64,000 nucleotides of DNA, from the IMG/VR virus record IMGVR_UViG_2931736537_000001, positions 64,001 through 128,000 of that record; one strand, 5' to 3'. Position 1 is the stretch's first letter. Every line of letters starts with the position of its first letter. Below are positions 2,174-46,982 of this stretch, one piece after another. Both the position numbers and the translations under genes were made by a program. The DNA comes from a virus (taxonomy: Duplodnaviria; Caudoviricetes). The notes under the pieces were generated by a model. The model was given only the letters and a program-made list of their open reading frames with translations, made no database searches and was not told where the DNA came from.

Positions 2174-2203
2174 TGGACTCTTTACAACGTAGCGTTGTAA
2201 AGT
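2174..2203 (+). promoter_or_regulatory. Promoter with palindromic operator TTACAACG-N3-CGTTGTA (copy 1)
   Basis: ctttacaacg-tag-cgttgtaaag, -10 TAAAGT, upstream of small gene at 2242. Confidence 0.8.
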
Positions 2204-2241
2204 CGTGGGCGTAGGGAACGCCACGACGACGGAGGACCACG

Positions 2242-2487
2242 ATGCGGCCCGAGGGCATAACCGACACCACCGCCGAGTCGCTGTTCATCGAGGAGCTGGA
2301 CGGCATCACCTACGCCACCGAGGACGAGGCGGTGTACGCCCGGTACAGCCCGGAAGACTGGGAAGCCCAGGCCAAGAGCGAGGCCGACGCCGAGAACGGA
2401 TGGCTGCGAGCGGCGGAGACCAATGACCGCTACGCCTGGGAGGACGAACAGGACCGGATGCGAGCCGCCTTCTACGGCACCATCTGA
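2242..2487 (+). CDS. Small acidic protein
   Basis: GGAGG RBS; about 21 D/E versus about 7 K/R in 81 aa. Confidence 0.75.
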   Translation: MRPEGITDTTAESLFIEELDGITYATEDEAVYARYSPEDWEAQAKSEADAENGWLRAAETNDRYAWEDEQDRMRAAFYGTI

Positions 2488-8261: not shown

Positions 8262-8356
8262 TGCAGAGTCCTTGTCTGGTCTGGGGGCACTCCGTGCCCG
8301 GTGTGCCCCCAGACGGTATCGGGATGTGAACTCGCCCTGGCCCGGGCGGAGTTCGC

Positions 8357-9619: not shown

Positions 9620-9688
9620 TGGTGATTCGTGGTCACGAGCGCGCGGGGGCCGCGGTGGCCGTCTGCGGCGTTCGTGGTGGTGTCGGCG

Positions 9689-11372: not shown

Positions 11373-12053
11373 GTGGCCAGGCGCACGACGGCCTACCGGC
11401 GCGTCGCCCAGGAGCTGCGCGACCAGATCGCAGGCGGGCAGCTCAAGGAAGGCGACCGCATTCCGTCCCTGACGGAGCTGCAGGCCGAGTTCGGTGTCTC
11501 GGACACCGTGATCCTGGAGGCTCGCAAGGTCCTGGTGGCCGAGGGCCTCCTCGTCGCGCGGACCGGCGACGGCACGTACGTCCGTGAGCGGCCCGAGCCG
11601 CAGCGCCTGCTGCACGGTGAGCCGGCCGAGGCCGGGCAGCCCTGGTTCCGGCTGGAAATCGGCGAGTCCGCCCTGTTCCCCGACGTAGTCGAGGTGGAGC
11701 CGGAGACGAGCGTGCCGGCGCCCGCCGACGTAGCTCGGCACCTGGGCGTCCGTACGGGTCGCCGGGTGCGCCGCGCGGTGCGGCTCTTCCGGCACGACGG
11801 CTCCGCCGTGCAGCTGGTGACCGCTCACGTGCTGGCGAGCGGAAAGGCGGAGACCGCAGCGACGGAGGAGCAGGTCACCTCGCGGCCGGCGCTGGATTCG
11901 GAGGCCCGGGCGTTGGACGGCGTAGTCGGCCAGCCGGTGACCGTGGTGACCCGTGTGGAGCGTCCGGAGTCCGGCCGGGCCCGCGTGCTGCAAACGGTGG
12001 TGCTGGCCGACCGGTTCAGCCTGGTCTACCAGCCTGGGCGCCCCGGGGAATGA
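11373..12053 (+). CDS. GntR/HutC-family regulator (wHTH plus UTRA-like domain)
   Basis: YRRVAQELRDQI...GDRIPSLTEL...FGVS...GDGTYV. Confidence 0.85.
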   Translation: MARRTTAYRRVAQELRDQIAGGQLKEGDRIPSLTELQAEFGVSDTVILEARKVLVAEGLLVARTGDGTYVRERPEPQRLLHGEPAEAGQPWFRLEIGESALFPDVVEVEPETSVPAPADVARHLGVRTGRRVRRAVRLFRHDGSAVQLVTAHVLASGKAETAATEEQVTSRPALDSEARALDGVVGQPVTVVTRVERPESGRARVLQTVVLADRFSLVYQPGRPGE

Positions 12054-14677: not shown

Positions 14678-14692
14678 GCGTGACGCTCCTCG

Positions 14693-15508
14693 TCAGGCGT
14701 GGAGTTGGATCGCGTCGACCTGCTCGCGCAGCGCGACGTAGGTGGACAGGCGCAGGAAGAAGTCGCCGCCTTGGCCCCAGGCCGGGCCCCAGGAGTTGCG
14801 CAGCCGCAGCACGGTCCGCTCCGGGACGACGCGGCCGTCGCTGTACTGGGCGACCTCCTCGAGGCCGATGGCACACACCTCGTGGCCGCCGGCGAGGCCG
14901 GAGGTCCGCCAGTACGGGACGGTGTCGACGAAGCCGTCCGCTGCGGGCGTGAACCAGGCGTTGAACCAGGGCAGACCGAGCAGGACCGGCCCCTTCTGCA
15001 GGGCGGCGGCCAGCGCCGCGGCGTCCAGGGCGTGGGTGTAGGAGCCGATCAGGCCGCGGCTCTTCAGGACGCGGGCGACGCCGAGGCCGGAACTGCCGCT
15101 GTCGGCCGGCGGCCACTGGTAGGGCACGAACTCGTCGACGGCGGTGGCCTCGGAGTACAGCTGCAGCGCCCACTGCTCTGCGGCGACCGCGTCGTCGGTG
15201 GGCAGTCCCGCCCGCTCGAGGGCGGGTGCGTCGAGCAGGACGGACAGGGCCGCCGCCGCGGCGTTCGCCGTGCAGGAGCCGACGGCGTCGACGTCCCGGG
15301 TGCCGGTGATGGTGGAGGTGTGGATGCCCTGGGCGAGCAGGTCCTGCTGGTTCAGGACGGGGATGGCGGGCTGCCAGCGCACCGGCTGCAGCGCTTCACC
15401 ACCGTGGGTCTCGCGGTGGGCCAGTGAGCGGGCGTCGAGGACCTGGTGGCGGCCGAGCGCCGGATGGACGTCGTAGTGGCGTACGAGGACGCCGTGCGTG
15501 GTGGGCAC
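14693..15508 (-). CDS. Papain-like (C1) cysteine peptidase
   Basis: GSCTANA (Cys), GGHEV (His), LRNSWG (Asn). Confidence 0.8.
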   Translation of the reverse strand: MPTTHGVLVRHYDVHPALGRHQVLDARSLAHRETHGGEALQPVRWQPAIPVLNQQDLLAQGIHTSTITGTRDVDAVGSCTANAAAAALSVLLDAPALERAGLPTDDAVAAEQWALQLYSEATAVDEFVPYQWPPADSGSSGLGVARVLKSRGLIGSYTHALDAAALAAALQKGPVLLGLPWFNAWFTPAADGFVDTVPYWRTSGLAGGHEVCAIGLEEVAQYSDGRVVPERTVLRLRNSWGPAWGQGGDFFLRLSTYVALREQVDAIQLHA

Positions 15509-34665: not shown

Positions 34666-36513
34666 TCACTGCTGCTGTCCTGCGTCGTTGGCGCCGGTCT
34701 CAGCGGCTGCTGGGGCGGGCGGTTCGGAACGTTGGGCGCTCGGTCCGGTCAGTACGGGCACGGGCGGGTCGTCGGGGTCGGCGGGCTCCAGCCCCAGGTA
34801 CTCCCGGACGGCGTCGGCGTCGCCGGTGGCGTCCGCGAGGGCGGCGGCCTGGTCGAAGGCGCGGGCCTGGATGCGTTCGATCTCGGCGGGGATGTCCTCG
34901 ATCGGCCAGCCGCCCTCGGCGAGCATGCGCAGCGCGGTCTCCAGGCTGATGAGCCGGGCGGCGAACGCGGTGGCGACCTCCTCGAGGACGCCCATGCGGT
35001 CGGTGGGCGTGTACGCGCCGAAGACGAGGGAGGCCGGGTGCACGGCGCGGCCGACCCAGTCGGGGTGCTGCCCGGCGATGAACAGCCGCTGCACGAACCG
35101 CAGGAGGAGCTGGTACTTGTGCCGGCGGGCCAGGCGCATGGCGGCGACGAGCTTGTCGAGCGGGCCGAGGCTGATCTTCAGGGCGTACCCCGAGGGCATC
35201 TGCGCTGGGTCGTGGGTGCCCAGGGCGACCGCCGGGAGGCGGAGGTTGACCGCAGCGCGGTCGCGCAGGGTGTCCACGGTGGCCAGGAGCTGGGCGAGTT
35301 GGGGTGCGGTGTTCACGACGTCCATGCGCCCGCCGTCAGCCAGCTTGAAGACGGTGCCCGGCTCGACCTGGAGGCTGGCGCGGCCGTCCTGCAGCCCGGA
35401 TACGGACAGGATCGGGATGCCGGTGGTCGCCGAGGCGCGGGCCGCGTCGGTGTCGGAGGCCGCCAGCTCGTCCAGGATCTGCAGGACCTTGGCGAGGGAC
35501 GCCGTGCCCCAGTGCTCCCCGGCCGCGGGCACCGTGTTCGGGAGGTGGATCACCGGCACGAAGTCGATCACGAGGTCGAGCCCGTTGAGGACCTCGCCGT
35601 CGCTGCGCTGGGCGTAGGTGGCCTTGTCCATCGGCAGGTTGTCGACGTCGCTGGTGCGCTCGAGGTCCTCCAGCAGCCAGGTGGCGTCGGTCAGGTAGCA
35701 GGTGACGCTGGACGGCTCGTCGTTCCAGGCGTACTGCCGCCAGATCGTCCCGGCCTCGTCGGCGGCGTCCCCCTGGACGAGCTGCGGTTCGTCCTCACTT
35801 CCGGCCCAGGTGCGCTGGGGCCGGCCGTACCGGTCGGCGCTCGAGGTGGTGGCCGGCCGAATCGGACCGAGCTCGTAGGTGATGCGGCGCAGCCGGTCCT
35901 TCAGCCCGCGCCGGGGGTCGGCCGGCAGTTCCCACGCGAAGTGCACGCGCACCGGAAACTCTCCGTCGTCGTCGCCCAGCACTGGGAAGTAGAAGCCGGG
36001 ATCCATCACACGGACGACCGGGCGCCGTTTGTCCGGCTCCCACGACAGCCGGTAGACGGCGTCGCCGAGGCCGACGGCCTTGCGCTCGGCCTGCAGCAGG
36101 CGCATGGGCAGTTGCTCGTCCTCTGCCCAGGTGAGGAGGTCGTCCTGGACGGCGCGGGCCTCTTCGGCGTCCGGGCTGTCGTCCTCGTCCTCGACGCCGG
36201 CGACGACGATGCGCTGCTCGTCACCGAGGACGTCGGAGGTGATCGCCTCAATGAAGCTGGCCGGGTCTCCGTATTCACGCCGTTCACGGGCCTCGGGTCC
36301 GTCGCGCACCTCGGCGAGTTCGCCGGCCTGGTTGCCGTCGTAGGCGGCGAGGGTGGTGTACGCGGCCAGGCGCCGGACGTCGTCGTCGGGGACCCAGGTG
36401 GCGTAGGCGGACGGGAAGGCCCGGCGGTTGGGGTTGTTCGTGCTCGGGTCGGCGAACACCGGCTTGAAGTTCAGCCAGCCCCAGGTGTCGATCAGGAATT
36501 GCCGCAGGCCCAC
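34666..36513 (-). CDS. Portal protein
   Basis: About 615 aa; GTG with GGAG RBS; LGDAVY..W, DPGFYFP, FVPVIHLPN, SGYALKI. Confidence 0.85.
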   Translation of the reverse strand: MGLRQFLIDTWGWLNFKPVFADPSTNNPNRRAFPSAYATWVPDDDVRRLAAYTTLAAYDGNQAGELAEVRDGPEARERREYGDPASFIEAITSDVLGDEQRIVVAGVEDEDDSPDAEEARAVQDDLLTWAEDEQLPMRLLQAERKAVGLGDAVYRLSWEPDKRRPVVRVMDPGFYFPVLGDDDGEFPVRVHFAWELPADPRRGLKDRLRRITYELGPIRPATTSSADRYGRPQRTWAGSEDEPQLVQGDAADEAGTIWRQYAWNDEPSSVTCYLTDATWLLEDLERTSDVDNLPMDKATYAQRSDGEVLNGLDLVIDFVPVIHLPNTVPAAGEHWGTASLAKVLQILDELAASDTDAARASATTGIPILSVSGLQDGRASLQVEPGTVFKLADGGRMDVVNTAPQLAQLLATVDTLRDRAAVNLRLPAVALGTHDPAQMPSGYALKISLGPLDKLVAAMRLARRHKYQLLLRFVQRLFIAGQHPDWVGRAVHPASLVFGAYTPTDRMGVLEEVATAFAARLISLETALRMLAEGGWPIEDIPAEIERIQARAFDQAAALADATGDADAVREYLGLEPADPDDPPVPVLTGPSAQRSEPPAPAAAETGANDAGQQQ

Positions 36514-36618
36514 GTCGTCCCTCCGGACAAGTCGGCCCCGCGCCGTGATCAAGGATATCGGCGCGGGCTGGCCGGTCCTGCGGGCGTGGCCCGGCCTGAT
36601 CTTTCTCGGGCAACCTCC

Positions 36619-36683
36619 TTCCATCCTTACAACGTACCGTTGTATGGTCGAACCCGAGCCAAAGGCAACGGAACGTTGTATAG
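36619..36683 (+). promoter_or_regulatory. Tandem operator/promoter (full site 36627-36644, partial site 36666-36680)
   Basis: TTCCAT-cc-TTACAACG-tac-CGTTG-TATGGT and caacg-gaa-CGTTG-TATAGT; divergent from the portal gene. Confidence 0.8.
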
Positions 36684-36724
36684 TCAGCGCCGGGAAAGGC
36701 TCGCCCGGCGCGGGAGGAGAAACC

Positions 36725-36946
36725 GTGGAAGGCGCAACGCGGCCGCAGGGCCCCGCACACCCCGACGTGACGGTCCAGCTGTCCGGAGAAGACAGCAACG
36801 CGTACAACATCGTCGGACAGGTCTGCAGGGCGCTGCGACGGGCCGGACACCCCGAGGCGGCCTCGGAGTTCGCGGCGACGGCATTCCGGTCGACGTCGCA
36901 CGACGAGCTGCTGCAACTGGCCATGTGCACGGTCGACGTGCACTGA
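36725..36946 (+). CDS. Small conserved phage/plasmid protein
   Basis: GGAGGAG RBS; VQLSGEDSNAYNIVGQV..ALRRAG motif. Confidence 0.75.
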   Translation: MEGATRPQGPAHPDVTVQLSGEDSNAYNIVGQVCRALRRAGHPEAASEFAATAFRSTSHDELLQLAMCTVDVH

Positions 36947-36957
36947 CACCCGGATCA

Positions 36958-36994
36958 GCGCGGTCCGCCCCGAGGCAAGCGGGGCGGACCGCGC
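36958..36994. repeat. Hairpin with CG-AGGCAAG-CG loop (1)
   Basis: Perfect 15-bp stem. Confidence 0.85.
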
Positions 36995-37024
36995 GTCCAT
37001 CGTCGCAGATCGGAGACAGAGGAC

Positions 37025-37261
37025 ATGAGCGGCAAGCAGGAACAGCAGAAGGCGCCGGAAGTCTGGGGCTACGCGAAGGTCGCCGAGGTGTCCGGCGTGA
37101 AGGTGCCCACCCTGCGCCGGTACAAGAAGGAGGGCCACATGCCTGCCCCGGACATCGCCGTGGGGAACTCGCCCGGCTGGTTCCCGGCGACCATCGAGAA
37201 GTGGCTCAAGGACCGCCCCGGCAGGGGCTTCCGGTCGGACCTGAAGGACCAGGACTCCTGA
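37025..37261 (+). CDS. AlpA/MerR-like HTH DNA-binding protein (candidate regulon repressor)
   Basis: YAKVAEVSGVKVPTLRRY...MPAPD...PGWFPATIEKW...RPGRG. Confidence 0.8.
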   Translation: MSGKQEQQKAPEVWGYAKVAEVSGVKVPTLRRYKKEGHMPAPDIAVGNSPGWFPATIEKWLKDRPGRGFRSDLKDQDS

Positions 37262-37363
37262 CGCCGCCCAGCCCGCCGGCGCCGCCTCGACGCGCCCCCG
37301 CTCCCCCGCCGGAGCCGGGGCGCGCGGCGTTTCCGGAGGGGTTGAGGAAGATCAGAAAAGCCC

Positions 37364-37393
37364 TTCTCACCTTACAACGCAACGTTGTAAGGT
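37364..37393 (+). promoter_or_regulatory. Promoter with operator
   Basis: TTCTCA-cc-TTACAACG-caa-CGTTG-TAAGGT. Confidence 0.85.
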
Positions 37394-37433
37394 TATGGGA
37401 GAGGCCGGGCCCGCCGGCCAGGAGAGGAGTCCG

Positions 37434-37928
37434 ATGTTCACCGTCAGCCTGGACCTCAACGACCACGGCCTGCCCAAGAGCGACCCGCTGAAGGTCCACG
37501 CCGTCGGCGACTGGGTGCACGGCACGACCAGCATCCGGTACGCCTTCCACGACCCGGCGATCCACTTCCCCGACTCGGACTGCCCGATCACCGGCGTCCT
37601 GCTGATCGACAAGTACATCGACCCGGTCTACCGGGACGACCCGGCCGGGTACGACTTCGACGACGAGCCGGCCGTGTCGGTCAGCCTCGGCGACCCCCGG
37701 GCCGCCGACGTGCACGACCAGATGCTGGAGGTCGGGGACTGGGGCCTCACCGGCCATGTGGTCTGCAGCGACCTGTACATGAACCCGGGACCGCACCCGG
37801 ACCACGCCGACCGGCACCCCTTCGACTTCCGCGTCGGCCTGGACGCCCCCACCCACCACCTGGCTGCGAGCCTCCTGCGGGCCGCCGCCTCCGACTACGT
37901 GCAGCGCTGGAAGGCGGTAAGCATCTGA
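37434..37928 (+). CDS. Hypothetical acidic protein
   Basis: AGGAG RBS; followed by a hairpin. Confidence 0.75.
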   Translation: MFTVSLDLNDHGLPKSDPLKVHAVGDWVHGTTSIRYAFHDPAIHFPDSDCPITGVLLIDKYIDPVYRDDPAGYDFDDEPAVSVSLGDPRAADVHDQMLEVGDWGLTGHVVCSDLYMNPGPHPDHADRHPFDFRVGLDAPTHHLAASLLRAAASDYVQRWKAVSI

Positions 37929-37985
37929 CCTGCGCCCCGGCAGCCCTCCGGGGCGCAGCCGCGTGAAGAAGATCGGCGTCACGAC

Positions 37986-38015
37986 TTCCAACCTTACAAC
38001 GCTTCGTTGTATTGT
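37986..38015 (+). promoter_or_regulatory. Promoter with operator
   Basis: TTCCAA-cc-TTACAACG-ctt-CGTTG-TATTGT. Confidence 0.85.
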
Positions 38016-38055
38016 CGGGGTGCAAGGAACGGCCCGGCACCACGAAGGAGACGAG

Positions 38056-38310
38056 ATGGACCTCGACAACACCACCGCCGACCAGGTCTTCCAGGCGGCC
38101 AGTACGGCCACCTTCCGCAGGACCAACCTCGGGATGACTGCCGACGTACCGGTCGACGGCTACCGCTACCGGGTCATCGTCGAGGACCGCTACCTGGCCC
38201 ACACCGACTGCCGGGAGGGCTACGGCGGCACCGAGTGGACCTACGCCAACGCCACCCAGGAGCAGGACCGGGCGCTGCGCGCGGCGATCGCCGCCCAGAC
38301 CGCCAAGTAG
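38056..38310 (+). CDS. Small hypothetical protein (paralog of 39210-39461)
   Basis: AAGGAG RBS; aligns with the 39210 ORF. Confidence 0.8.
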   Translation: MDLDNTTADQVFQAASTATFRRTNLGMTADVPVDGYRYRVIVEDRYLAHTDCREGYGGTEWTYANATQEQDRALRAAIAAQTAK

Positions 38311-38316
38311 CCGGCC

Positions 38317-38361
38317 GCGGCGGGGGCTTGCCGCGAGGCAAGCGCGGCAAGCCCCCGCCGC
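38317..38361. repeat. Hairpin with CG-AGGCAAG-CG loop (2)
   Basis: Perfect 19-bp stem. Confidence 0.85.
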
Positions 38362-38391
38362 CCGGCCCGACCGTCCAGCGAGGAGGACACC

Positions 38392-39015
38392 GTGACCGTC
38401 ACCTTCACCGCCGCGCACCGCCCGCCCGTCGGCTACGCGGTCAGCTGCGGCTGCGACGAGGCCACCGCGCGCGCTCCGCGCTACGGCGCCTGGCGCGATG
38501 CACAGGACGCCGCCGACCGGGCCAACGCCGCGGCGGACGCCCGACGCCCCCTGCCCGGCTGCGCCATGCCCGAGACCTGCCCCGAGTACCCGCTGTACGC
38601 CGAGGAGGTCGACCCCGACGGGCGGGTGCCGGACGTGACGGTCTCGAGTATCAACGCCGTCGGCGTGCTGGAGGCCCTGGGGGTCGCGCTCGCCGCCGAG
38701 CCGGACGCCGCCGAGCCGGACGCCGTCGAGAGCGAGGCGCTCGAGGGCGGCATGCCCCTGGAGGCGCCGGAGGACGGCGTGGTCGTGCCGATCGCGGTGG
38801 TCGACGCCTGCGGCGAGCTGCCCGTGGAGGACTTCCGCGCGCGGGTGCTCACGGCCCTGGGCCTGGCGCCCGAGGACCCGGGGGTCCCGGGCATCCAGCT
38901 CGGACGCACGTACGTGGGCGGGCGCCCGGCCGGGTACCTGCAGCGCCGCCTGCAGGACCTGTACGCGCTGGCGGACTGGTGCGCCGCACACGGCCGCGAC
39001 GTGGCCTGGTACTGA
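38392..39015 (+). CDS. Hypothetical protein (Cys-containing, acidic)
   Basis: GGAGG RBS; GRPAGYLQRRL...L...C...V.W C-terminus. Confidence 0.75.
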   Translation: MTVTFTAAHRPPVGYAVSCGCDEATARAPRYGAWRDAQDAADRANAAADARRPLPGCAMPETCPEYPLYAEEVDPDGRVPDVTVSSINAVGVLEALGVALAAEPDAAEPDAVESEALEGGMPLEAPEDGVVVPIAVVDACGELPVEDFRARVLTALGLAPEDPGVPGIQLGRTYVGGRPAGYLQRRLQDLYALADWCAAHGRDVAWY

Positions 39016-39138
39016 CGGCCCGCCCCGTTCAGCCAGGGGCGGGCCGACCGGCCCGCACAGGCCCACGTCGGCAGGGGGCCGGCACTCCCGCAACATCTCT
39101 GACCTGCGGTTTTCTTCTGTAAATCCAGGCGACACGGG

Positions 39139-39168
39139 TTCCAACTTTACAACGCAGCGTTGTAACGT
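39139..39168 (+). promoter_or_regulatory. Promoter with operator
   Basis: TTCCAA-ct-TTACAACG-cag-CGTTG-TAACGT. Confidence 0.85.
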
Positions 39169-39209
39169 CGTGATCGCCAGGAACGCACCGCCGCACGAAG
39201 GGATACGAG

Positions 39210-39461
39210 ATGCACCTCGACCGCGTCACCGCCGACAAGGTCTTCGAGGCCGCCTGCCAGGCCCGGTTCCACCCCACCGGCCACCTCGGGATGACCGCCC
39301 AGGTGTTCATCGACGAGTACACCTACCGGATCTGCATCACCGACGAGCGCCCCGCCCGCACCGACCTTCGGGCGGGCTGGGGCGACGCCGAGGAGGCCCT
39401 CGCCGAGGCCACCCCCGAGCAGGACCGGGCGCTGCGCGAGGCGATCGCCAGCCCTGCGTAG
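39210..39461 (+). CDS. Small hypothetical protein (paralog of 38056-38310)
   Basis: Shared TAD.VF.AA...LGMTA...EQDRALR.AIA. Confidence 0.8.
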   Translation: MHLDRVTADKVFEAACQARFHPTGHLGMTAQVFIDEYTYRICITDERPARTDLRAGWGDAEEALAEATPEQDRALREAIASPA

Positions 39462-39472
39462 CCACACCCCCA

Positions 39473-39505
39473 GGGGCCCGCCTCGAGGCAAGCGAGGCGG
39501 GCCCC
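39473..39505. repeat. Hairpin with CG-AGGCAAG-CG loop (3)
   Basis: Perfect 13-bp stem. Confidence 0.85.
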
Positions 39506-39564
39506 GCCGCCTGTGACGCAGGGCTCCGATCAGCGGGCTTCTTCAAGAGATCGGCCGACCCGAC

Positions 39565-39594
39565 TTCCCACCTTACAACGCTCCGTTGTATAGT
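39565..39594 (+). promoter_or_regulatory. Promoter with operator
   Basis: TTCCCA-cc-TTACAACG-ctc-CGTTG-TATAGT. Confidence 0.85.
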
Positions 39595-39644
39595 TGTGGT
39601 GTTGGCAGGGCGGGGAACCGCCCACGGACGAACGAGGAGCGACC

Positions 39645-39983
39645 ATGGACAACACCAGGCGCCACGCCCGGATCTGCATCCACCTCGCACAGCGGGAGGT
39701 CACCGAGGCCCACGGTCCGGTGACCGACCTGGATGCCACCGAGCGCCGCTGGCGGCGCGAGGACCTGGCCTCCGCCTTCCGCGACTACCGCGAGATCCGC
39801 GTACAGGGAGTCGGGGCGACCTGGCGCGAGGCCCTGCAGGACGCAGCCTCCCGAGGCCGCTTCAACCTCACCCCCTACGACGGCAACCTGGACGACGCGC
39901 GCGACGCCCTGGCGCGCGGCGCCATATGGGACTTCACCGCCACCCCGAACGGGACGGCGCTCGTAGGCCCCCTGGCCTTCTAG
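39645..39983 (+). CDS. Hypothetical protein
   Basis: GAGGAG RBS. Confidence 0.75.
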   Translation: MDNTRRHARICIHLAQREVTEAHGPVTDLDATERRWRREDLASAFRDYREIRVQGVGATWREALQDAASRGRFNLTPYDGNLDDARDALARGAIWDFTATPNGTALVGPLAF

Positions 39984-40146
39984 CCCGCCCCCCTGGCCGC
40001 CCGGCCCCCACCGGGCGGCCTTCCCCGTTGCGGCCAGCAAGCGGGGCGCCCGGCGCCTTCACGGGCGCACGTGACCCCGACCGGCCTCGATCCCGAGGTC
40101 GACGCTACGGGGCCGGCATGTCGGCCCAGGAAGATCGCGCACGCGC

Positions 40147-40176
40147 TTCCATCGTTACAACGCTCCGTTGTATAGT
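40147..40176 (+). promoter_or_regulatory. Promoter with operator
   Basis: TTCCAT-cg-TTACAACG-ctc-CGTTG-TATAGT. Confidence 0.85.
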
Positions 40177-40235
40177 TGATCTCGAAGGGGACGGGGAAGG
40201 CCCCCGGACCTTGATGCACACAGAGGGAGCGCAGC

Positions 40236-40448
40236 ATGCACGAGATGACGGTCGCCGAACTGATCGAGCAGCTCGAGGAGATGGACCCGGAGGCGACGGT
40301 GCGCCTGGCCATTCAGCCGACCTACCCCTTCGAGCACAGCCTCGCCAAGGCGGTCCAGGCCGAGGACGGCACCTGCTACCTCGCCGAGGGCGAGCAGCTG
40401 GGCTACCTCAGCGACCGGGCCAGCGAGGACATCGGCTGGGGCCGCTAG
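40236..40448 (+). CDS. Small acidic phage-type protein
   Basis: MTVAELIEQLE..DPEATVRLA.QP.YPFE motif; GGAG RBS. Confidence 0.8.
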   Translation: MHEMTVAELIEQLEEMDPEATVRLAIQPTYPFEHSLAKAVQAEDGTCYLAEGEQLGYLSDRASEDIGWGR

Positions 40449-40459
40449 CTCGGACACGC

Positions 40460-40492
40460 AGGGCCCGCCCCGAGGCAAGCGGGGCGGGCCCT
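40460..40492. repeat. Hairpin with CG-AGGCAAG-CG loop (4)
   Basis: Perfect 13-bp stem. Confidence 0.85.
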
Positions 40493-40549
40493 CGCTTTCG
40501 TTGCCCCGCGGGCCCCCTTCGGGCCGGCCCGGAAAGATCCCGAACCGAC

Positions 40550-40579
40550 TTCCATCGTTACAACGCTACGTTGTATAGT
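40550..40579 (+). promoter_or_regulatory. Promoter with operator
   Basis: TTCCAT-cg-TTACAACG-cta-CGTTG-TATAGT. Confidence 0.85.
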
Positions 40580-40625
40580 TGGGGTGCGAGCGGGGGACGG
40601 CCCCGGAAGACGGAAGGGAAGCGCG

Positions 40626-40850
40626 ATGCTGTACATGCTCAAGGAACTCGACTCCAAGGGCCGCATCTTCCAGGACGACGACACGACCGAGTACTTCAGC
40701 GCGGCCGACTACGGCAGCGACGACGCTGCGAAGGCAGCCGCGATGGACGCGTACAACTGGCGGGTCCGCCAGACCGACGAGGCTTGGGGTGACGGGGTCG
40801 GCAAGACCCGGTGGACCCTCCTGGAGTGGGGGCCCGGGCCCAAGCCCTAG
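40626..40850 (+). CDS. Small hypothetical protein
   Basis: Purine-rich RBS; follows the promoter. Confidence 0.7.
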   Translation: MLYMLKELDSKGRIFQDDDTTEYFSAADYGSDDAAKAAAMDAYNWRVRQTDEAWGDGVGKTRWTLLEWGPGPKP

Positions 40851-40860
40851 CACTCACGCT

Positions 40861-40891
40861 CGCAGCCCCGGCCCGCCTGGCCGGGGCTGCG
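40861..40891. terminator. Hairpin between the convergent small gene and terL
   Basis: cgcagccccggcc-cgcct-ggccggggctgcg. Confidence 0.7.
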
Positions 40892-40895
40892 CCGC

Positions 40896-42455
40896 TCACC
40901 GGCGCCCGTTGAGGCGTCCGTCGCGGTAGCTGCCCGTCCCGCTGTCCACGGCCGCCGGGTTGGCCAGCTCGGTCAACGCGTGCACGCAGGCGTCCATCCG
41001 GTCCGGCGAGTCGAGACCCGGCATCCAGGTGACCATCTGTACCTCGAGCCCCGGCCACTCCCCCACGTGCCTGACCCGACCCTGCTCGTACAGCTGGGCG
41101 ATCGGCTCGGCCCTCAACCTTTTGCCCTGCTTGGCGGTCACGGGCACGATCCGCGGGCGCAGCACGCCAGCGACCTCGGGACCCGCAGCGCGGACCATCT
41201 CCTCCCAGCCCTGGACGAGCACCTGCCTCGTCATGTCGCCGCCGAAGTTGGACTCGACGACCATGGCGTCGGCCTGGACCTCGAGGGCGAGTTCGCACGC
41301 CGCTCGTCCCCAGTCGGCGGCGCCCATCTTCCCTGAGCGGTCGGCCAGGACGTACAGGTTCCCGGCCGCGTCGCGTCCGGCGGCCACGATGCCGACCTCG
41401 TCGCTGTCCTCGCCGCCACCGGCCGGGTCCACGGCGACCACGACCCGGGTGAGCTGGACGCCGCGCAGCTGCTCGGCGCTGACGCGGTGCCGGCGGATCC
41501 ACTCCCACTTCCAGATGCCACCCTCGAGCGGCCTGGGCTGCTGCTGGTACAGCGCCCACCAGCCACGCTCCCCGACCTCGTCGCGGAAGTCCTGCAGGTG
41601 CTCGAGGCCGAACCGCTCGGGCCACAGCGGCTCGCCGAGGGCGCGGCCGAGGGCGTCGTCGGCGCTGTCGGCGATCGCCGGCAGGTTGATGACGGTCCAG
41701 CGGGCGCTGTCCCGGGCGGCGTCCTGCGTCAGGATGCGGCCAGCCAGGTCGTTCTCACTCCAGCGGGTCTGGATGACGACGATGGACCCGTTCGGCTCCA
41801 TACGCGTGTTGAGGACCTGCTGCCACCAGTCCCACAAGTCGCCCAGCACGGTCGGGGAGGCCGCGGCCTTCGCGTCCTTCAGCGGGTCGTCGACGATGGC
41901 CAGGTGCGCGCCCATACCGGTCAGCGAGCCGCCGACGCCGGCGGTGACGAGGCCACCGGGCCCGCCGGTCAGGTCGAAGCGCCCGGCCGCCTTGGAGCCG
42001 TAGCGCAGGGATATGCCGAGCTGGTCCTCGTACTCGTTGATGGAGTCGCGCAGCCAGCGGCCGTGTCCCTCGGCGAGGACCGCGCTGTAGGAGGCGATCA
42101 TCAGCCGGTGGGTAGGGTTGCGCCGCAGGTACCACAGGGGCGCCCAGCGCGCCGCGCGCTGCGACTTGCCGTGCCGGGGCGGCATGTTCAGCAGCAGCCG
42201 GACTCGTTCACCGCGGGCGATGCGGATGAACGCCTGGTCGATGAGGTTGAGGTGCCGGGCCTGCAGCTCCCGGCCGTTGGTCAGCAGCGCGGCCAGGGAC
42301 CCCGGGGAGCGGTCCATGGCCATCTCACGCTCGACCTGGGCCAGGCGCATGCGCATGTCGGGTGAGGCGCTGCGGGCGATGGCCAGGCGTTGCTGGCGGG
42401 GCAGCGTGCGGTAGCGCTTGAGGAGACGTTCCTCCTGGTCCGGCGCCTGCATCAT
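40896..42455 (-). CDS. terL: Terminase large subunit
   Basis: Walker A MPPRHGKS, IVDDPLKD, QTRW, YQQQP, nuclease VAVDPA and SPDRMDA. Confidence 0.93.
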   Translation of the reverse strand: MMQAPDQEERLLKRYRTLPRQQRLAIARSASPDMRMRLAQVEREMAMDRSPGSLAALLTNGRELQARHLNLIDQAFIRIARGERVRLLLNMPPRHGKSQRAARWAPLWYLRRNPTHRLMIASYSAVLAEGHGRWLRDSINEYEDQLGISLRYGSKAAGRFDLTGGPGGLVTAGVGGSLTGMGAHLAIVDDPLKDAKAAASPTVLGDLWDWWQQVLNTRMEPNGSIVVIQTRWSENDLAGRILTQDAARDSARWTVINLPAIADSADDALGRALGEPLWPERFGLEHLQDFRDEVGERGWWALYQQQPRPLEGGIWKWEWIRRHRVSAEQLRGVQLTRVVVAVDPAGGGEDSDEVGIVAAGRDAAGNLYVLADRSGKMGAADWGRAACELALEVQADAMVVESNFGGDMTRQVLVQGWEEMVRAAGPEVAGVLRPRIVPVTAKQGKRLRAEPIAQLYEQGRVRHVGEWPGLEVQMVTWMPGLDSPDRMDACVHALTELANPAAVDSGTGSYRDGRLNGRR

Positions 42456-42910: not shown

Positions 42911-43960
42911 TCAGAGGACCTTCTCCCGCAGGGTCTGGGCGATGGCTCGCATCAGGAGCGGCGGCACGGAGTTGCCGATGCGCGCCCACACCTTGTCCAC
43001 TGGGCTGTCTCCCCAGTCGTAGGCGTCGGGGAAGGACTGCAGGCGGGCGAGTTCCCGCACGCCCAGCAGGCGGTCCTCCTCGGGATGGAGCAGGCCGTTG
43101 CGGGAGGCGGAGACCTCCTTGATGAGGGTGTAGGACGGCTTGTCCCAGGCGAGGCGCTCGAGGGAGAAGAACGCCTTCTTCCCGCCGAGGTCCAGCAGCG
43201 TGTCGCCGCCGTTGCGGCCGGGCGGGATGAGGGGCGCGACGCGGGCGGCCTTGCCGGAGGGCCGCTGGAACGGGCCGGGGTCGTCCAGGCCGGCCAGGGC
43301 CTCCCGGACGGTCAGCGGCCGGTCGATGGGTGCCGGGTGGACGGGGTCCAGACCGAGGTCGCGGCGCACGCCGATGAAGATCATGCGCATGCGCTTCTGG
43401 GGGACGTGGAAGTACGAGGCGTCGACCAGGCGGGCGACGACCCGGTACCCGGGCCCGGCGGCCTTGAGCGCGCCGAGGATCTCCGCGAACAGGGAGCGCA
43501 TCTGGCCGCGGACCATGCCGGCCACGTTCTCCATGACGAAGCACTTCGGCTGCCAGTGCTCGATGCACCGGATGTACTGCCGGAAGAGCTGGTTGCGCGG
43601 GTCGTCGATCTGCCGGCGCCCGACGGTGCTGAACCCTTGGCAGGGTGGGCTGCCGTCGAACACGTCCAGCTCGCCGGGCGCCAGGCCGAGGCCGACCGGG
43701 TCCAGGGCGGCGATGTCGCCGTGGTGGAGCGGGACGTGGGGGAAGTTGCGTCGGAAGCACGCGGCGGCGTGGTCGTCCCATTCCACGGCGAGCAGTTCTC
43801 GGTATCCGGCCATGGAGTAGCCCAGGGAGCTGCCGCCCGCGCCGGCGAAGGTGGAGACCACGGTCGGTGCGTCGTCGGCGCGCGGCGCGAGGTGCGCCTT
43901 CCAGGCGTCGGCGAGGATCCGGCTGTAGTCGAGCCGGGTACGGACGACGCGCGGGCTCAC
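42911..43960 (-). CDS. DNA cytosine-5 methyltransferase
   Basis: FAGAGG, GSPPCQGFS, ENV, PQKRMR, ARLQSFP, IGNSVPP. Confidence 0.93.
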   Translation of the reverse strand: MSPRVVRTRLDYSRILADAWKAHLAPRADDAPTVVSTFAGAGGSSLGYSMAGYRELLAVEWDDHAAACFRRNFPHVPLHHGDIAALDPVGLGLAPGELDVFDGSPPCQGFSTVGRRQIDDPRNQLFRQYIRCIEHWQPKCFVMENVAGMVRGQMRSLFAEILGALKAAGPGYRVVARLVDASYFHVPQKRMRMIFIGVRRDLGLDPVHPAPIDRPLTVREALAGLDDPGPFQRPSGKAARVAPLIPPGRNGGDTLLDLGGKKAFFSLERLAWDKPSYTLIKEVSASRNGLLHPEEDRLLGVRELARLQSFPDAYDWGDSPVDKVWARIGNSVPPLLMRAIAQTLREKVL

Positions 43961-44496
43961 TTCGCGGCCTCGGCGCCGGTGAAGGAGTGCCCGCAGTTCG
44001 GGCAGGTGTGGGTGGTGGGGTTGAGGGCCTCGGCGATCGACTCGTCGAAGGCGGCAAATCCGTCGGGCAGTTCGGCGGTGAGCAGGCGCGTGACCTCCTG
44101 CTGGTTCCAGCCGGTTCCCTCGAGGTCGCCGTCGAGAGCGGCGAGCATCGTCGCGAGGTCCTCCTCGTCGTAGTAGCCCAGCTCGGCCAGCTTGTTGTCG
44201 GCCAGGTTGATGCGCCGGGCGGTGTCGTCGTCGCAGGTGATGACCTCGCACCGGCCGGTGGCGTGGCCCTCGGCCTTCAGTGCGTCGCGGGTGTGGTTGC
44301 CGGCCAGCACCACGAGGGCGTCGCCGGTGTCGCGGACGACCAAGGAGCGGTACTGCCCGTGGCGGCGGAGGGAGGCCCGGATCGCCTCGACGTCGCCGCG
44401 CCGGGGGTTGCCGGGGTAGCGGCTCAGCTCGTCGAGGGGTATCTCGCGGGTGCCGGTGTAGGTGGCGCCGGGCAGGCCGGCGCTCGTCTCGCTCAT
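43957..44496 (-). CDS. Stand-alone ParB/Srx-like protein with C-terminal CxxC
   Basis: GNPRRGD...LAGNHT..AL...LADNK; near-copy of the N-terminus of 45181-46455. Confidence 0.85.
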   Translation of the reverse strand: MSETSAGLPGATYTGTREIPLDELSRYPGNPRRGDVEAIRASLRRHGQYRSLVVRDTGDALVVLAGNHTRDALKAEGHATGRCEVITCDDDTARRINLADNKLAELGYYDEEDLATMLAALDGDLEGTGWNQQEVTRLLTAELPDGFAAFDESIAEALNPTTHTCPNCGHSFTGAEAAK

Positions 44497-44699
44497 GCGG
44501 GGCGTCCTTCGTTGTGGTCCGCGATGATGCGCCGGGCCCAGGTGTCCGGGTTCTCGAAGCCCCACCGTCGGGCGTCCCATTCGGTGGCTCGGTCGCGGAT
44601 GTCGATCCAGATGTCCAGGAGGTGGTCGCGCATGGCCGGGTCCCGGGTGCGTCGCAGCCGGGCGGCCAGGTGCGCGAAGGCGGCCGGGTGAGCGGGCAT
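44493..44699 (-). CDS. Small hypothetical protein
   Basis: Translationally coupled on both sides. Confidence 0.55.
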   Translation of the reverse strand: MPAHPAAFAHLAARLRRTRDPAMRDHLLDIWIDIRDRATEWDARRWGFENPDTWARRIIADHNEGRPA

Positions 44700-45166
44700 T
44701 AGGAGGCGTCCTCCGCGTTCTCGTCGTCGGCTGCCGTGCCCGCGGTCAGGGTGATGAGGCGCTCCAGTTCCGCCAGGTCGACGGCCTCGACCTGCAGGGG
44801 CCCGCCGTCGGCGCCGGTGATCTCCGTGCGTGCGGGCCGGTCGAGCCCGAGGAGACGGGCTCGGCGGTCGATGACCTTCAGGACGGTCTCGATTGCTTTC
44901 AGGTCGCCCTTGGCGGCCTTGGCCCATGCGGCGGCCTGCATCCGGTCCAGGCGCTGCACTTCGAGTTCGCGCAGGGTCGCCGCGGCGACGGACTCGGCTT
45001 CGAGGTTGGCCTCGAGCGCCCGGTGGACGTCCTTGGACGCCGCGCCGCGGTCTGCGTAGTCGAGCCGCTCGGCGATCGTCTGGTAGTCCATGCCGGCCAG
45101 CCGCAGCGCGATGGCCTGCGAGCGGCGTTTGGCGGTGGCGGCGCGTTGCGCCTTGGACGCGGGCAC
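44699..45166 (-). CDS. Terminase small subunit-like HTH protein (copy 1)
   Basis: RRSQAIALRLAGMDYQTIAERL...RRARLLGLDRP..EITGADGGP. Confidence 0.75.
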   Translation of the reverse strand: MPASKAQRAATAKRRSQAIALRLAGMDYQTIAERLDYADRGAASKDVHRALEANLEAESVAAATLRELEVQRLDRMQAAAWAKAAKGDLKAIETVLKVIDRRARLLGLDRPARTEITGADGGPLQVEAVDLAELERLITLTAGTAADDENAEDAS

Positions 45167-45180
45167 GGGTCAGCCCCCTG

Positions 45181-46565: not shown

Positions 46566-46595
46566 TTCCAACCTTACAACGCTCCGTTGTATAGT
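46566..46595 (+). promoter_or_regulatory. Promoter with operator
   Basis: TTCCAA-cc-TTACAACG-ctc-CGTTG-TATAGT; divergent from the packaging operon. Confidence 0.85.
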
Positions 46596-46631
46596 TGGGG
46601 TGTGAGGACGACCCGCCCCAAGGAGGCCCCG

Positions 46632-46982
46632 ATGCAGCGCACCGCCACCGCCCCCACCTGCCGCCGCTGCTGGCGCCCCCTCAGCTCCGCCCGCTCCATC
46701 GCCACCGGCTACGGCCCCACCTGCCTGCGAAAGGTCAAGGCCGCCGCCGAGACCCACGCGCAGACCAGCGGCCACAAGCCCGCCCAGGTCGCCAAGGCCA
46801 CCGAGCTGATCGAGCAGGGCGCGGTGATCCCCCTGCGGGCCCGCCGAGTCTTCCAGGTGGTCGCCTCCGACGGCCTCACCACCTACAAGACGGCCGCGCA
46901 GGCGTGCACCTGCCCGGCCGGGCGCCGCGGCGAGCACCTCTGCTACCACCGCATCGCCGCCCAGATCCTCATCGCCGCATGA
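46632..46982 (+). CDS. DUF6011-like Zn finger plus SWIM-like Zn finger protein
   Basis: CRRC.RPL....SI..GYGPTC and CTCP...CYH; AGGAGG RBS. Confidence 0.75.
   Translation: MQRTATAPTCRRCWRPLSSARSIATGYGPTCLRKVKAAAETHAQTSGHKPAQVAKATELIEQGAVIPLRARRVFQVVASDGLTTYKTAAQACTCPAGRRGEHLCYHRIAAQILIAA

Follow-up and report, generated by a model that had tools for sequence, protein, structure and literature searches.

A putative promoter-operator module shared by small-gene cassettes between the portal gene and terL of a Streptomyces phage-plasmid

A row of moron-like cassettes lies between the portal gene and terL of a ~142-kb Streptomyces phage-plasmid, each unit headed by a copy of the same promoter-like module with a dyad in its spacer. 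We read this array as a repressor-type regulon whose dyad is bound by an element-encoded repressor, and put the probability of this reading at about 0.65. An initial annotation of the DNA had likewise proposed a co-repressed regulon; its further suggestions, that the genes fire on entry into a naive cell or on induction and form a candidate anti-defence battery, find no support here. The shared regulatory site is there, in the spacer of ~15 candidate promoters; that a regulator controls them we infer from sequence. With such a site, the natural reading is a regulon under a single DNA-binding protein that the element encodes. Coordinates below refer to the window, the whole 64,000-nt stretch analysed (positions 64,001 to 128,000 of IMG/VR record IMGVR_UViG_2931736537_000001).

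Results

Array layout. Nine + strand ORFs of 70–207 aa, opposite to the virion genes, split terL from the portal gene, as first described. To the left, the portal gene (34666..36513, - strand) encodes 615 aa with a GTG at 36513, equal in length to the annotated homologue in NZ_CP054917.1, and matches phrog_64 (E 6.3e-13). To the right, terL (40896..42455, - strand) carries Terminase_6N and Terminase_6C. From 5' to 3', the module consists of a GATC box, a TTCCAA-like box, an 18-nt spacer that the dyad fills and a TAnnGT box, after which come the leader, the small ORF and a GC-rich hairpin. For each candidate promoter-operator (all on the + strand) we give the -35-like box, the operator with its three-nucleotide centre, and the -10 box.

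The first unit comprises c1 (36725..36946, 73 aa) and c2 (37025..37261, 78 aa), behind promoter-operator 1 (36619..36648; TTCCAT, operator 36627-36644, TAC, TATGGT). A second operator (36663..36684) lies 36 nt downstream of the first; its left arm, GCAACG, is degenerate, and it carries a TATAGT box. A hairpin with the loop GAGGCAAGC (36958..36994) follows c1. The acidic c3 (37434..37928, 164 aa) has its own module (37364..37393; TTCTCA, operator 37372-37389, CAA, TAAGGT) and a hairpin at 37930..37958. One module (37986..38015; TTCCAA, operator 37994-38011, CTT, TATTGT) precedes both c4 (38056..38310, 84 aa) and the acidic c5 (38392..39015, 207 aa); the hairpin after c4 (38319..38359) again has the loop GAGGCAAGC, c5 comes next with no promoter of its own, and its hairpin lies at 39017..39045. 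The module of c6 (39139..39168; TTCCAA, operator 39147-39164, CAG, TAACGT) is followed by the gene (39210..39461, 83 aa) and a hairpin with the same loop (39473..39505). For c7 (39645..39983, 112 aa) the module is at 39565..39594 (TTCCCA, operator 39573-39590, CTC, TATAGT), and for the acidic c8 (40236..40448, 70 aa) at 40147..40176 (TTCCAT, operator 40155-40172, CTC, TATAGT), with a hairpin of loop GAGGCAAGC at 40460..40492. The last gene, c9 (40626..40850, 74 aa), lies under a module at 40550..40579 (TTCCAT, operator 40558-40575, CTA, TATAGT), and its hairpin (40862..40890) sits between the convergent c9 and terL.

The units had been described as hairpin-ended, and a stable GC-rich stem-loop does lie 3' of each of the nine ORFs (in this element, 80-nt segments reach -34 to -59 kcal/mol). 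A T tail was found at one hairpin only. The hairpins may not terminate transcription, since all but one are without T tails and both c2 and c5 lie promoterless behind a hairpin.

The putative promoter-operator module. The architecture TTCYMN-NN-TTACAACG-NNN-CGTTG-TAWNGT, with a spacer of 18 nt, fits all seven full sites of the array. These were recovered exactly where the initial annotation had placed them, and its partial site is present as a core at 36665 with one mismatch. The dyad TTACAACG-N3-CGTTGTAA fills the spacer and extends over the first two bases of the -10 box. A search of the 64-kb window with TTACAACGNNNCGTTGTA at up to 2 mismatches found 9 sites, compared to hits in 0 of 100 shuffles; the form TTACAACG-N3-CGTTGTA occurs at these 9 places. 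With the 15-nt core at up to 2 mismatches, the window gave 10 sites; shuffles averaged 1.65 and never exceeded 5.

The whole 141.7-kb replicon has 15 sites within one mismatch of the 15-nt core. Fourteen are non-coding, where the non-coding share of the replicon is 14.5%, and 14 of the 15 are followed by a start codon 55–96 nt downstream on the strand set by the TAnnGT box. Outside the array, the window contains two sites and the rest of the replicon five. The two in the window head further + strand units: one (2182..2487) consists of operator 2182-2199 and an 81-aa acidic ORF (2242-2487), the other (46574..46982) of operator 46574-46591 and a 116-aa DUF6011/SWIM-like ORF (46632-46982) that heads a + strand gene row.

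Over 56 oriented promoters from five elements, the arms are conserved at 91–100% and the three centre positions at 34–46%, which bears out the earlier observation of fixed arms around a varying centre. The TAnnGT box was itself used in part to choose site orientation, so its 100% conservation is partly by construction. Two promoters with a TTGACT box have a spacer of 16 nt rather than 18. The upstream GATC box, also noticed earlier, accompanies 38 of the 56 promoters compared to 9.4% of random 24-nt windows; its modal position is 10 nt from the TTCC box. A generic sigma-70 scan accepted one of the seven array promoters (that of c7). The -35-like box is poor, so a different sigma factor or an activator may be required at these candidate promoters. 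The initial annotation had missed the additional sites, the poor -35-like box and the near-absence of T tails.

Distribution and cassette exchange. Five related Streptomyces elements have 15, 14, 14, 12 and 9 sites (9–14 in the four relatives), and orthologous genes at 50–80% identity retain the site. The motif might have been a common chromosomal site of a host regulator, which had been named as grounds for rejecting the regulon. This is not the case: of 401 Streptomyces genomes, 2 contain the exact 18-mer, always on plasmid-like contigs, and the reversed control gave no match; this confinement argues that the site does not belong to a host regulator. The element's contig carries 7 of 7 exact core sites in one host genome and 8 of 10 in another. 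A blastn search found no phage record with similar DNA. In the distant relative pCQ3, 710 bp and no array separate the portal gene from a terminase-like gene, and the motif is absent (2 matches at up to 2 mismatches, 3 for the control).

Cassette order and content differ among the five related elements, with breakpoints between hairpin and leader, in agreement with the earlier suggestion of shuffling around the repeated promoters. A hairpin stays attached to the gene before it and a leader to the gene after it, which places the exchange points around the shared promoter. For example, c1 is absent from NZ_CP054917.1, and in two relatives the c8 cassette with its own leader directly follows c2. 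The replicon also encodes, away from the array, a tyrosine-integrase-like protein, as well as an FtsK/TraB-like translocase.

Cassette proteins. Seven of the nine proteins, including c3, c4, c7 and c9, have no family match in any library searched (Pfam, NCBIfam and PHROG among them). The only match of c1 is the phage family phrog_1933 (E 8e-17), whose function is unknown; Pfam and NCBIfam gave none. No family of known function was matched beyond the DNA-binding domain of c2, and the only PADLOC match in the array was the helix-turn-helix (HTH) of c2, with no match to a defence family. Six of the nine have a pI below 5, compared to 25% of all 187 called proteins; this acidity may be a weak hint of an anti-defence role.

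Homologues of c3 form 11 clusters, all from Streptomyces and confined to this phage-plasmid family; its AF2 model is poor (pLDDT 59.5). c6 is a second member of the c4 family, whose orthologues sit under the motif in all four relatives; the NA02950 copy is 66% identical to c6 and 58% to c4. c5 has four invariant N-terminal cysteines in the alignment (C19, C21, C57 and C63) and 27 homologue clusters on plasmid-like contigs, 26 of them Streptomyces or unnamed and one Saccharomonospora. Its AF2 model has a pLDDT of 82; c5 had no PDB match at E <= 0.001 and matched uncharacterised phage proteins in BFVD (best E 3.9e-9). c8 resembles ~70-aa hypothetical proteins of Actinomycetota and their phages. 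The NA02950 relative carries genes annotated as defence-type, AbiV and a Pycsar effector, elsewhere in its sequence.

Candidate operator-binding proteins. Our best candidate for the repressor is c2, a tentative choice. It is basic (pI 9.6) with a MerR-type winged helix-turn-helix that lacks the dimerisation helix, and is the sole protein with a DNA-binding domain among the motif-headed genes. It matches the DNA-binding protein family phrog_597 (E 1e-25) and, below the cut-off, Pfam MerR (E 4.5e-5); among solved proteins, its profile picks out the N-terminal HTH of MerR-family members (best E 7e-4). In the presumed recognition helix T29, R31, Y33 and K35 are invariant in 10 sequences. A tandem operator pair lies upstream of c2 in all five elements, including NA02950, which lacks c1 (Q 100629 and 100665; NA 103143 and 103179; H27 39788 and 39823; IMG 24559 and 24595; DIA 112841, with the upstream copy visible in the flank). 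Two observations count against c2 as the binder: its orthologues are only 51–77% identical although the operator is unchanged, and it has no recognisable dimerisation element. Small excisionase-like proteins of its type are often monomers. Also against c2, three further regulators are common to all four full-length elements, of the GntR/HutC, MarR-like (double winged-helix) and WhiB-like types. In favour of c2, its paralogue Q_174 heads a gene row with an FtsK/TraB-like gene, and in both Q and NA02950 three copies of a different palindrome flank it.

The GntR/HutC-type regulator (11373..12053, + strand, 226 aa; GntR E 1e-17, UTRA E 8e-8) is the alternative binder candidate. Here the regulon would be the same and the dyad would be the operator of a TraR/KorA counterpart, in a kil-kor-type circuit with transient derepression in new mycelium. 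The protein matches solved GntR relatives and is 72–75% identical across the four full-length elements, and the FtsK/TraB-like translocase is in line with a TraR-type circuit. However, HutC-type operators read GT..AC from the outside in, opposite to the dyad, and upstream of the GntR gene lies a different inverted repeat. Conjugative Streptomyces plasmids encode a dimeric GntR-type repressor, TraR, and that of pSVH1 binds the repeats TTTGGTACACAACT, according to the available text of PMC4447253. These repeats share ACAAC with the half-site, but an overlap of 5 nt is within chance. No copy of the dyad was found upstream of the GntR gene or of the translocase gene row, where TraR-type repressors act according to the available text (PMC4447253). 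We consider this assignment unlikely.

Less probable again is a reading of the cassettes as ordinary lysogenic-conversion morons, with steady expression from the resident plasmid-prophage, for instance for phage exclusion or host fitness. The dyad would then only trim the level, and there would be neither an entry burst nor counter-defence. The moron-like architecture (own promoter and hairpin, between genes that are close together in pCQ3), an orientation opposite to the silent late genes and the defence-type genes of NA02950 would all suit it. But in every copy the operator spans the entire spacer, reaches into the -10 box and is 91–100% conserved, which points to tight control rather than trimming, and no cassette protein matches a defence family.

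We rate slightly lower the idea that the dyad is a MerR-kind activator site, at which c2 or a partner would remodel a poor -35 promoter, giving positive feedback and an early-to-middle switch. A dyad filling the spacer is a hallmark of MerR-type promoters, the -35-like box is weak, and the HTH of c2 can be aligned to the one at the N-terminus of MerR-family proteins. The spacer, however, is 18 nt (16 nt in the two TTGACT promoters) and not the 19–20 nt of MerR-type promoters, and c2, at 78 aa, lacks the coiled coil and effector domain needed for the twisting mechanism. A role as recombination sites or as a selfish repeat (integron-like attC, miniature mobile element), rather than a regulatory one, is very improbable for the repeats despite the variable cassette order and content and the tyrosine-integrase-like protein encoded elsewhere, as every copy has a -10 box and is placed at a constant distance and in a constant orientation relative to a start codon, each cassette has its own promoter rather than one in common, no integrase adjoins the array, and inspection by eye found no target-site duplications or terminal repeats at the modules.

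Discussion

Under the repressor-type regulon, each moron-like unit would have its own promoter, leader, small ORF and GC-rich hairpin. The units stand in a row, antisense to the flanking terL and portal genes, and would have one standard promoter in common with ~7 further units outside the array. RNA polymerase would be blocked by an element-encoded protein, dimeric or paired, on the dyad, and all units would then be switched together. Encoded in the first unit behind the double operator, c2 may let an initial burst of expression pass and then repress its own operon along with the others, the logic of Aca at anti-CRISPR operons and of KorA/KorB on plasmid RK2.

This design is familiar; we did not find this motif sequence or cassette family described in the literature. 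Morons of temperate phages, as in lambdoid phages, are autonomous promoter-gene-terminator units between late genes. The array units similarly have their own promoter-like module and hairpin, contain small genes of unknown function and lie between two head genes (710 bp apart in pCQ3). Unlike morons, they form a row of seven promoter units with nine ORFs, all on the opposite strand under one standard promoter-operator, and the module also heads units elsewhere on the replicon.

In the Streptomyces phage phiC31, the repressor c is accompanied by conserved inverted repeats (CIRs), and the early promoters form a conserved family. Both phiC31 and the phage-plasmid are temperate Streptomyces elements in which a conserved promoter and a palindromic repressor site (both putative in the phage-plasmid) recur many times before small early genes, and both have tail-less hairpins; here promoter and operator are fused in one module, with the dyad inside the spacer. 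Cluster A mycobacteriophages also spread many repressor sites over a temperate actinophage genome. Their stoperators are asymmetric sites that halt elongation and are found in a single orientation both inside genes and between them, whereas the sites described here are symmetric and built into putative promoters.

In acr-aca operons, the Aca proteins are autoregulators (PMC6765145, PMC9410906), and a shared regulatory sequence has been used to find anti-defence genes (PMC11065993), as far as the available text of these papers goes. Similarly, the small HTH protein c2 is encoded downstream of the small unknown gene c1, with inverted repeats in the operon's own promoter (two at this first unit) and a predicted burst followed by shut-off. 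In contrast to the acr-aca operons of those texts, c2 has no family match at the curated cut-off, one operator type recurs at ~15 promoters rather than at one operon, and the cassettes have no known counter-defence activity.

Plasmid RK2 (IncP-1) has a global kor regulon, with KorA/KorB operators at many promoters. The kil-kor circuits of Streptomyces plasmids involve TraR/KorA (PMC4447253, available text). Compared to both, the operator sequence and candidate protein family differ, no site lies at the transfer genes, and the targets are small ORFs without known function instead of replication, partition and transfer genes. What is alike is one putative element-encoded repressor site at many plasmid promoters and a control operon that is likely autoregulated. 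If this kor-type logic holds for the phage-plasmid, a transient burst of expression would be expected in a new host.

Operator sites

The nine small plus-strand ORFs c1-c9 of the array at 36619-40891, lying between the portal gene and terL, probably belong to one regulon of moron-like cassettes, and the shared site that defines it is real, statistically solid and element-specific. The initial annotation had listed seven full palindromic operators and one partial site in this array, and pattern searches of the window recovered all of them at the positions it assigned. With TTACAACGNNNCGTTGTA as the pattern and up to two mismatches allowed, the window contains nine sites, compared to none in 100 shuffles; those not previously listed are at 2182 and 46574.

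Across the replicon, 17 matches to the 15-nt core of the palindrome (the dyad) were found at ≤2 mismatches. Fifteen of these have at most one mismatch and a full promoter context, which is lacking at the other two (genome 24438 and 36903). All but one of the 15 lie in non-coding DNA, which by our own gene calls makes up 14.5% of the replicon, and 14 are followed, 55-96 nt downstream and on the strand to which the TAnnGT box points, by a start codon that has a Shine-Dalgarno sequence. The exception is a module at genome 3422-3436 (minus strand, within 3410-3440) that runs antisense to a DNA-ligase-like gene without a credible ORF and possibly serves an antisense or non-coding RNA. Three relatives have ORF-less modules with a similar TGGACT-type -35 box at the corresponding place.

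Element and relatives

The window covers bases 64001-128000 of a single record, classed as virus, of 141,694 bp and 71.5% G+C. Of its annotated relatives, the closest is a linear plasmid of Streptomyces sp. NA02950 (NZ_CP054917.1, 151,949 bp), which matches the reported stretch at 77% identity over 88%. The annotation of this plasmid lists genes for capsid, tail, holin and terminase as well as ParA/ParB, an integrase and an FtsK-type translocase. In the window we confirmed terL (40896-42455, minus strand; Terminase_6N/6C) and the portal protein (34666-36513, minus strand; phrog_64), and identified a major capsid protein, a scaffold protein, two DNA methylases and a ParB-N-like protein among the window's proteins. 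An 846-aa protein with an FtsK gamma domain, resembling the TraB translocase of Streptomyces conjugation, is encoded at 55932-58472 (minus strand). Since the virion genes (terL, capsid, portal, scaffold) and the ParB-N-like and FtsK-gamma proteins are all confirmed, the element is a Streptomyces phage-plasmid with a conjugation-type translocase in addition. The element family, which unites virion genes, partition genes and an FtsK/TraB-like translocase, occurs in about 1% of the Streptomyces genomes sampled. Here the translocase and a full virion module share one replicon, and the element may spread as a phage and also by conjugation. No terminal inverted repeats were found in the first and last 600 nt of the record, so its ends may differ from the true ends of the element. 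We found no paper on the element family or the motif in the non-subscription literature on Streptomyces plasmid-prophages and phage-plasmids.

We compared five elements: the present one (Q), the NA02950 plasmid (NA), an 89-kb contig of Streptomyces sp. H27-C3 (H27), a 140-kb contig of S. diastatochromogenes (DIA) and a 51-kb IMG/VR provirus fragment (IMG). The site is specific to these elements. The pattern occurs 14 times in NA and its reversed form not once. Two genomes of strains that host relatives have 7 of 7 and 8 of 10 of their exact core sites on the plasmid-like contig. The exact 18-mer occurs in only 2 of 401 Streptomyces genomes, with every match on those two plasmid-like contigs and none for the reversed control. 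The possibility that the motif is a common chromosomal site for a host regulator, which would have refuted the regulon, therefore does not apply.

In pCQ3 of Streptomyces sp. W9, a more distant relative whose similarity is confined to the ends of the query, 710 bp without an annotated gene separate the portal gene from a terminase-like gene. The motif is also lacking from pCQ3 (2 matches at ≤2 mismatches, compared to 3 for the control). These two observations support the view, first put forward in the initial annotation, that the array is an insertion.

Promoter-operator module

The module was described from an alignment of 56 oriented sites in the five elements, taken from 64 sites at ≤1 mismatch. 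The eight left out for a low orientation score are five downstream 'partial' operators, H27 64157, DIA 68620 and IMG 34820. The consensus reads aAGATC, about 10 nt, cCTTCCAaC, c, TTACAACG-nnn-CGTTG-TAtAGT-TG. Conservation is 91-100% in the arms of the dyad and 34-46% at the three positions of its centre. It reaches 100% for the TA..GT of the -10 box, partly by construction, as orientation was chosen partly on that box.

The dyad sits within the -35/-10 spacer. Most promoters have a spacer of 18 nt; two, which carry a TTGACT box, have one of 16 nt. Measured against the TTGACA standard, the -35-like box is poor, and a generic promoter scan passes only one of seven, at 39565. In the 56-promoter consensus the TTCCAAC box (window 36619-36625 and equivalents) lies 8 nt upstream of the left arm, TTACAAC, which it repeats directly at 6 of 7 positions, and could be a third half-site instead of or besides a -35 box.

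GATC is present within 24 nt 5' of the TTCC box in 38 of the 56 promoters, against 9.4% of random windows, and starts at -24 or -25 in 22 of them. GATC is also over-represented on all five elements, with 593 occurrences on this one against 364 expected from base composition. Between terS and the promoter at 46574, the minus strand (42911-46455) encodes a C-5 cytosine methylase, the ParB-N-like protein and an N6/N4 methylase. The GATC box is part of the module, and methylation might conceivably affect promoter activity.

A GC-rich stable stem-loop lies 3' of every array ORF, and only one of these hairpins has a T tail. Judging by position, c2 and c5 would each have to be read through a hairpin. 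Five hairpins with different stems have the loop GAGGCAAGC in common (window 36972, 38335, 39485 and 40472, and genome 20764); in relatives the corresponding loop is GAGGTAAGC or GGGGCAAGC. All stems are perfect palindromes and would fold in antisense transcripts from terL too. Rfam returned no RNA family in 36000-41500 at E ≤ 0.1.

Probable cassette exchange

The array is at the same junction in all five elements, where orthologues are 50-80% identical and still stand behind the module, and the array maps differ by whole cassettes. With P for a promoter-operator and PP for a tandem pair, the Q array reads PP-c1-c2 / P-c3 / P-c4-c5 / P-c6 / P-c7 / P-c8 / P-c9. In H27 and IMG, c8 is directly 3' of c2 and is followed by an additional gene of 65-71 aa; IMG also has an additional 137-aa gene 3' of c3, and H27 a 56-aa gene 5' of c9. 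NA is missing c1. DIA is missing c9, has a different 75-aa gene, and carries c5 in two pieces; at 14634-15235 of the DIA contig these are ORFs of 81 and 119 aa, probably split by a frameshift. In Q, c6 is a second c4-type gene with 66% identity to the NA copy, against 58% for c4; since c6 is the nearer of the two, the sequences fit acquisition better than recent tandem duplication.

The c8 leader (GATCTCGAAGGGG...) accompanies c8 in 5 of 5 elements. In general, intergenic sequences read by eye pair the hairpin with the gene before it and the leader with the gene after it, so exchange points probably lie in or beside the shared promoter. The placement of breakpoints rests on this reading, as global identity is 0.66-0.82 for all pairs and is non-discriminating for such short GC-rich intergenic pieces. 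The comparison of cassette content and order proposed in the initial annotation gave whole-cassette differences in five elements, with probable breakpoints around the shared promoter. Contigs assembled from four DNA runs of close relatives have the same cassette order; they break at the repeated hairpin and promoter, and their joints are uninformative.

NA, H27 and the contig L045 carry further cassettes with the same module at their terS/methylase junction, where Q has none. On L045 (IMGVR_UViG_3300049259_000276, metagenomic), positions 4800-5750 hold two divergent cassettes with the module between a cytosine methylase gene and terS, one of which encodes a relative of Q_183, a gene at Q's right end. 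A c3 profile found only the two elements already known in IMG/VR, and the 22-nt module matched one JGI metagenome contig. These searches and those with c5 returned no wider relatives with a changed operator. The maps suggest that standard promoters can act as joints for small-gene exchange between elements.

Candidate repressor

Of the genes that immediately follow a module, only that of the small helix-turn-helix (HTH) protein c2 (37025-37261, plus strand, 78 aa), in the first unit, encodes a DNA-binding domain. A PDB profile match over residues 11-45 pairs the HTH of c2 with the N-terminal HTH of MerR-family proteins of known structure (best E 7e-4). Against Pfam MerR it scores 23.6 bits, below the cut-off of 28.2, with the HTH part alone aligning. 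Residues T29, R31, Y33 and K35 are invariant in 10 sequences. In all five elements the first unit carries a pair of operators spaced 36 nt apart, of which the second (core at 36665 in the window) has a degenerate left arm; in NA the pair is still 5' of c2 despite the loss of c1.

An 81-aa paralogue of c2, Q_174, is encoded by the first gene of the long minus-strand row to which the FtsK/TraB-like gene belongs. Between Q and NA (NZ_CP054917.1), the 245 nt upstream of the Q_174 gene are almost identical, far above average conservation. Around Q_174, both elements have three copies of a second palindrome, roughly TGTaCCC-N5-GGGtACA, which in Q are outside the window at genome 131891, 132215 and 132315 (L006:6891-6913, 7215-7237 and 7315-7337); these sites, too, differ hardly at all between Q and NA. 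The features of c2, its tandem operators and the palindromes at Q_174 form the pattern expected of palindrome-binding autoregulators, which we infer this small protein family to be.

Against c2 as the binder are its length of 78 aa with no visible dimerization element and the presence of GntR/HutC, MarR-like double winged-helix and WhiB-like proteins in all four full-length elements. The GntR/HutC protein (11373-12053; GntR and UTRA domains) is the counterpart of the Streptomyces plasmid regulators TraR/KorA. The TraR site of pSVH1 is TTTGGTACACAACT, located at the transfer operon, according to PMC4447253. No dyad was found at the GntR gene or at the FtsK/TraB-like transfer row. A sugar-nucleotide gene row at 5464-10993 (minus strand) adjoins the GntR gene and the lysis genes; the relative's annotation of this row includes UDP-glucose/GDP-mannose dehydrogenase, class III aminotransferase, GNAT acetyltransferase and a sugar nucleotide-binding protein, and the row may serve to modify DNA or the cell envelope. 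On balance we regard c2 as a tentative assignment for the dyad binder, with a chance somewhat short of even.

Cassette gene products

Family, fold and pI results name no function for the cassette proteins. None of the nine passes a curated Pfam cut-off, and none of ten proteins matches NCBIfam. PHROGs assigns c1 to phrog_1933 (unknown function) and c2 to phrog_597 (DNA binding protein, E 1e-25), with weak N-terminal matches for c8. No Aca or anti-defence name appears among the Pfam, NCBIfam and PHROGs results for the cassette proteins. The sole PADLOC match is the HTH of c2, to mad1 (E 1.8e-5). Six of the nine proteins have a pI < 5, compared to 25% of all 187 called proteins.

For c3, 11 homologue clusters were found, in Streptomyces only; an atlas search gave no match, and the predicted model is too poor for a fold search. 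Atlas matches of c8 are unnamed clusters only. The c5 protein has 27 homologue clusters on plasmid-like contigs and is present in 5 of 401 Streptomyces genomes, in one of which a distant copy has an unrelated context. Relatives of c5 also occur on ordinary large linear Streptomyces plasmids with neither virion genes nor the array (NZ_CP109047.1, NZ_CP106651.1). Several of these plasmid relatives are near plasmid ends, and one is 5 kb from a gene annotated as LPD29 domain-containing. The c5 alignment has four invariant N-terminal cysteines, and its model is confident (pLDDT 82). Against the PDB this model gives nothing at E ≤ 0.001; the first-ranked entry, the Neisseria DNA mimic DMP12, stands at E 0.97 and carries no weight. 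It does match uncharacterized phage proteins in BFVD, best a protein of Mycobacterium phage Quesadilla (E 3.9e-9).

Relation to known systems

The units of Q fit the concept of morons in their insertion between head genes that are close together in pCQ3. The module 55-96 nt before each first ORF, with its poor -35 box, is a candidate for a promoter of the unit's own, and the hairpin after every ORF, in one case with a T tail, for a terminator; a moron would also be expressed from the repressed prophage. The regulon logic resembles that of phiC31 (CIRs, conserved early promoters), the RK2 kor regulon and acr-aca operons. With acr-aca operons the layout is the same: c2 follows c1, and two dyads lie at the c1-c2 promoter in five elements, which would make c2 a candidate autoregulator.

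Other systems differ. MerR-type promoters also have a dyad operator inside the -35/-10 spacer, but theirs is over-long at 19-20 nt whereas Q modules have 18 or 16 nt, and MerR-type regulators combine a winged HTH with a long dimerization helix and an effector domain, of which the 78-aa c2 has only the HTH part. Streptomyces kil-kor circuits have a GntR-type repressor gene, as does Q (11373-12053), but place its sites at the repressor's own gene and the traB/spd operon, and the Q dyad is at neither. Cluster A stoperators are asymmetric, in one orientation, and within as well as between genes, while Q sites are symmetric, 14 of 15 non-coding, and in promoter modules. Integron cassettes are promoter-less, carry attC and share one common promoter next to an integrase; the Q array has seven promoter modules. 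No integrase gene adjoins it, the only integrase-like gene being ~45 kb away.

A blastn search of the array against 50,697 phage records gave no match. The fused promoter-operator module, its use for a whole moron row inside the head-gene region, the cassette-level exchange between relatives and the module sequence itself distinguish this system.

Proposed mechanism and significance

We propose that the modules are promoters used by host RNA polymerase, possibly with a helper factor at the GATC box. With a repressor bound to the dyad, the spacer and the first bases of the -10 box would be covered and all units turned off. The repressor gene is probably c2, which is itself under the dyad. If so, a newly entered cell would have no repressor yet, and the whole set would be expressed once and then shut down. 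We give this repressor-regulon reading a probability of roughly 0.65.

That the products are counter-defence or takeover factors is a separate claim, and we consider it rather unlikely. A broader reading, improbable on present evidence, makes the module an exchangeable 'establishment island', with acidic inhibitor-type proteins made in one burst in naive mycelium, shut-off by an Aca-like c2, and recombination at the shared promoter. Under it, the small acidic proteins would be candidate counter-defence or host-takeover factors, and genes would join or move within the regulon via the shared promoter, integron-like but without an integrase.

Provided that the regulon is real, the dyad singles out a defined group of ~20 genes that are co-switched by a Streptomyces phage-plasmid. 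Only one of the genes immediately behind it has a known function, and the set would be a short, testable gene list for establishment functions (counter-defence, host takeover, exclusion). The protein c2 and its 18-bp site would likewise be a simple candidate repressor-operator pair for Streptomyces genetics. Shared regulatory sequence has served as a key to anti-defence genes in archaeal viruses, as described in PMC11065993. Should the establishment-island reading be true, searches with the dyad could turn up unknown anti-defence genes in the mobile elements of actinomycetes.
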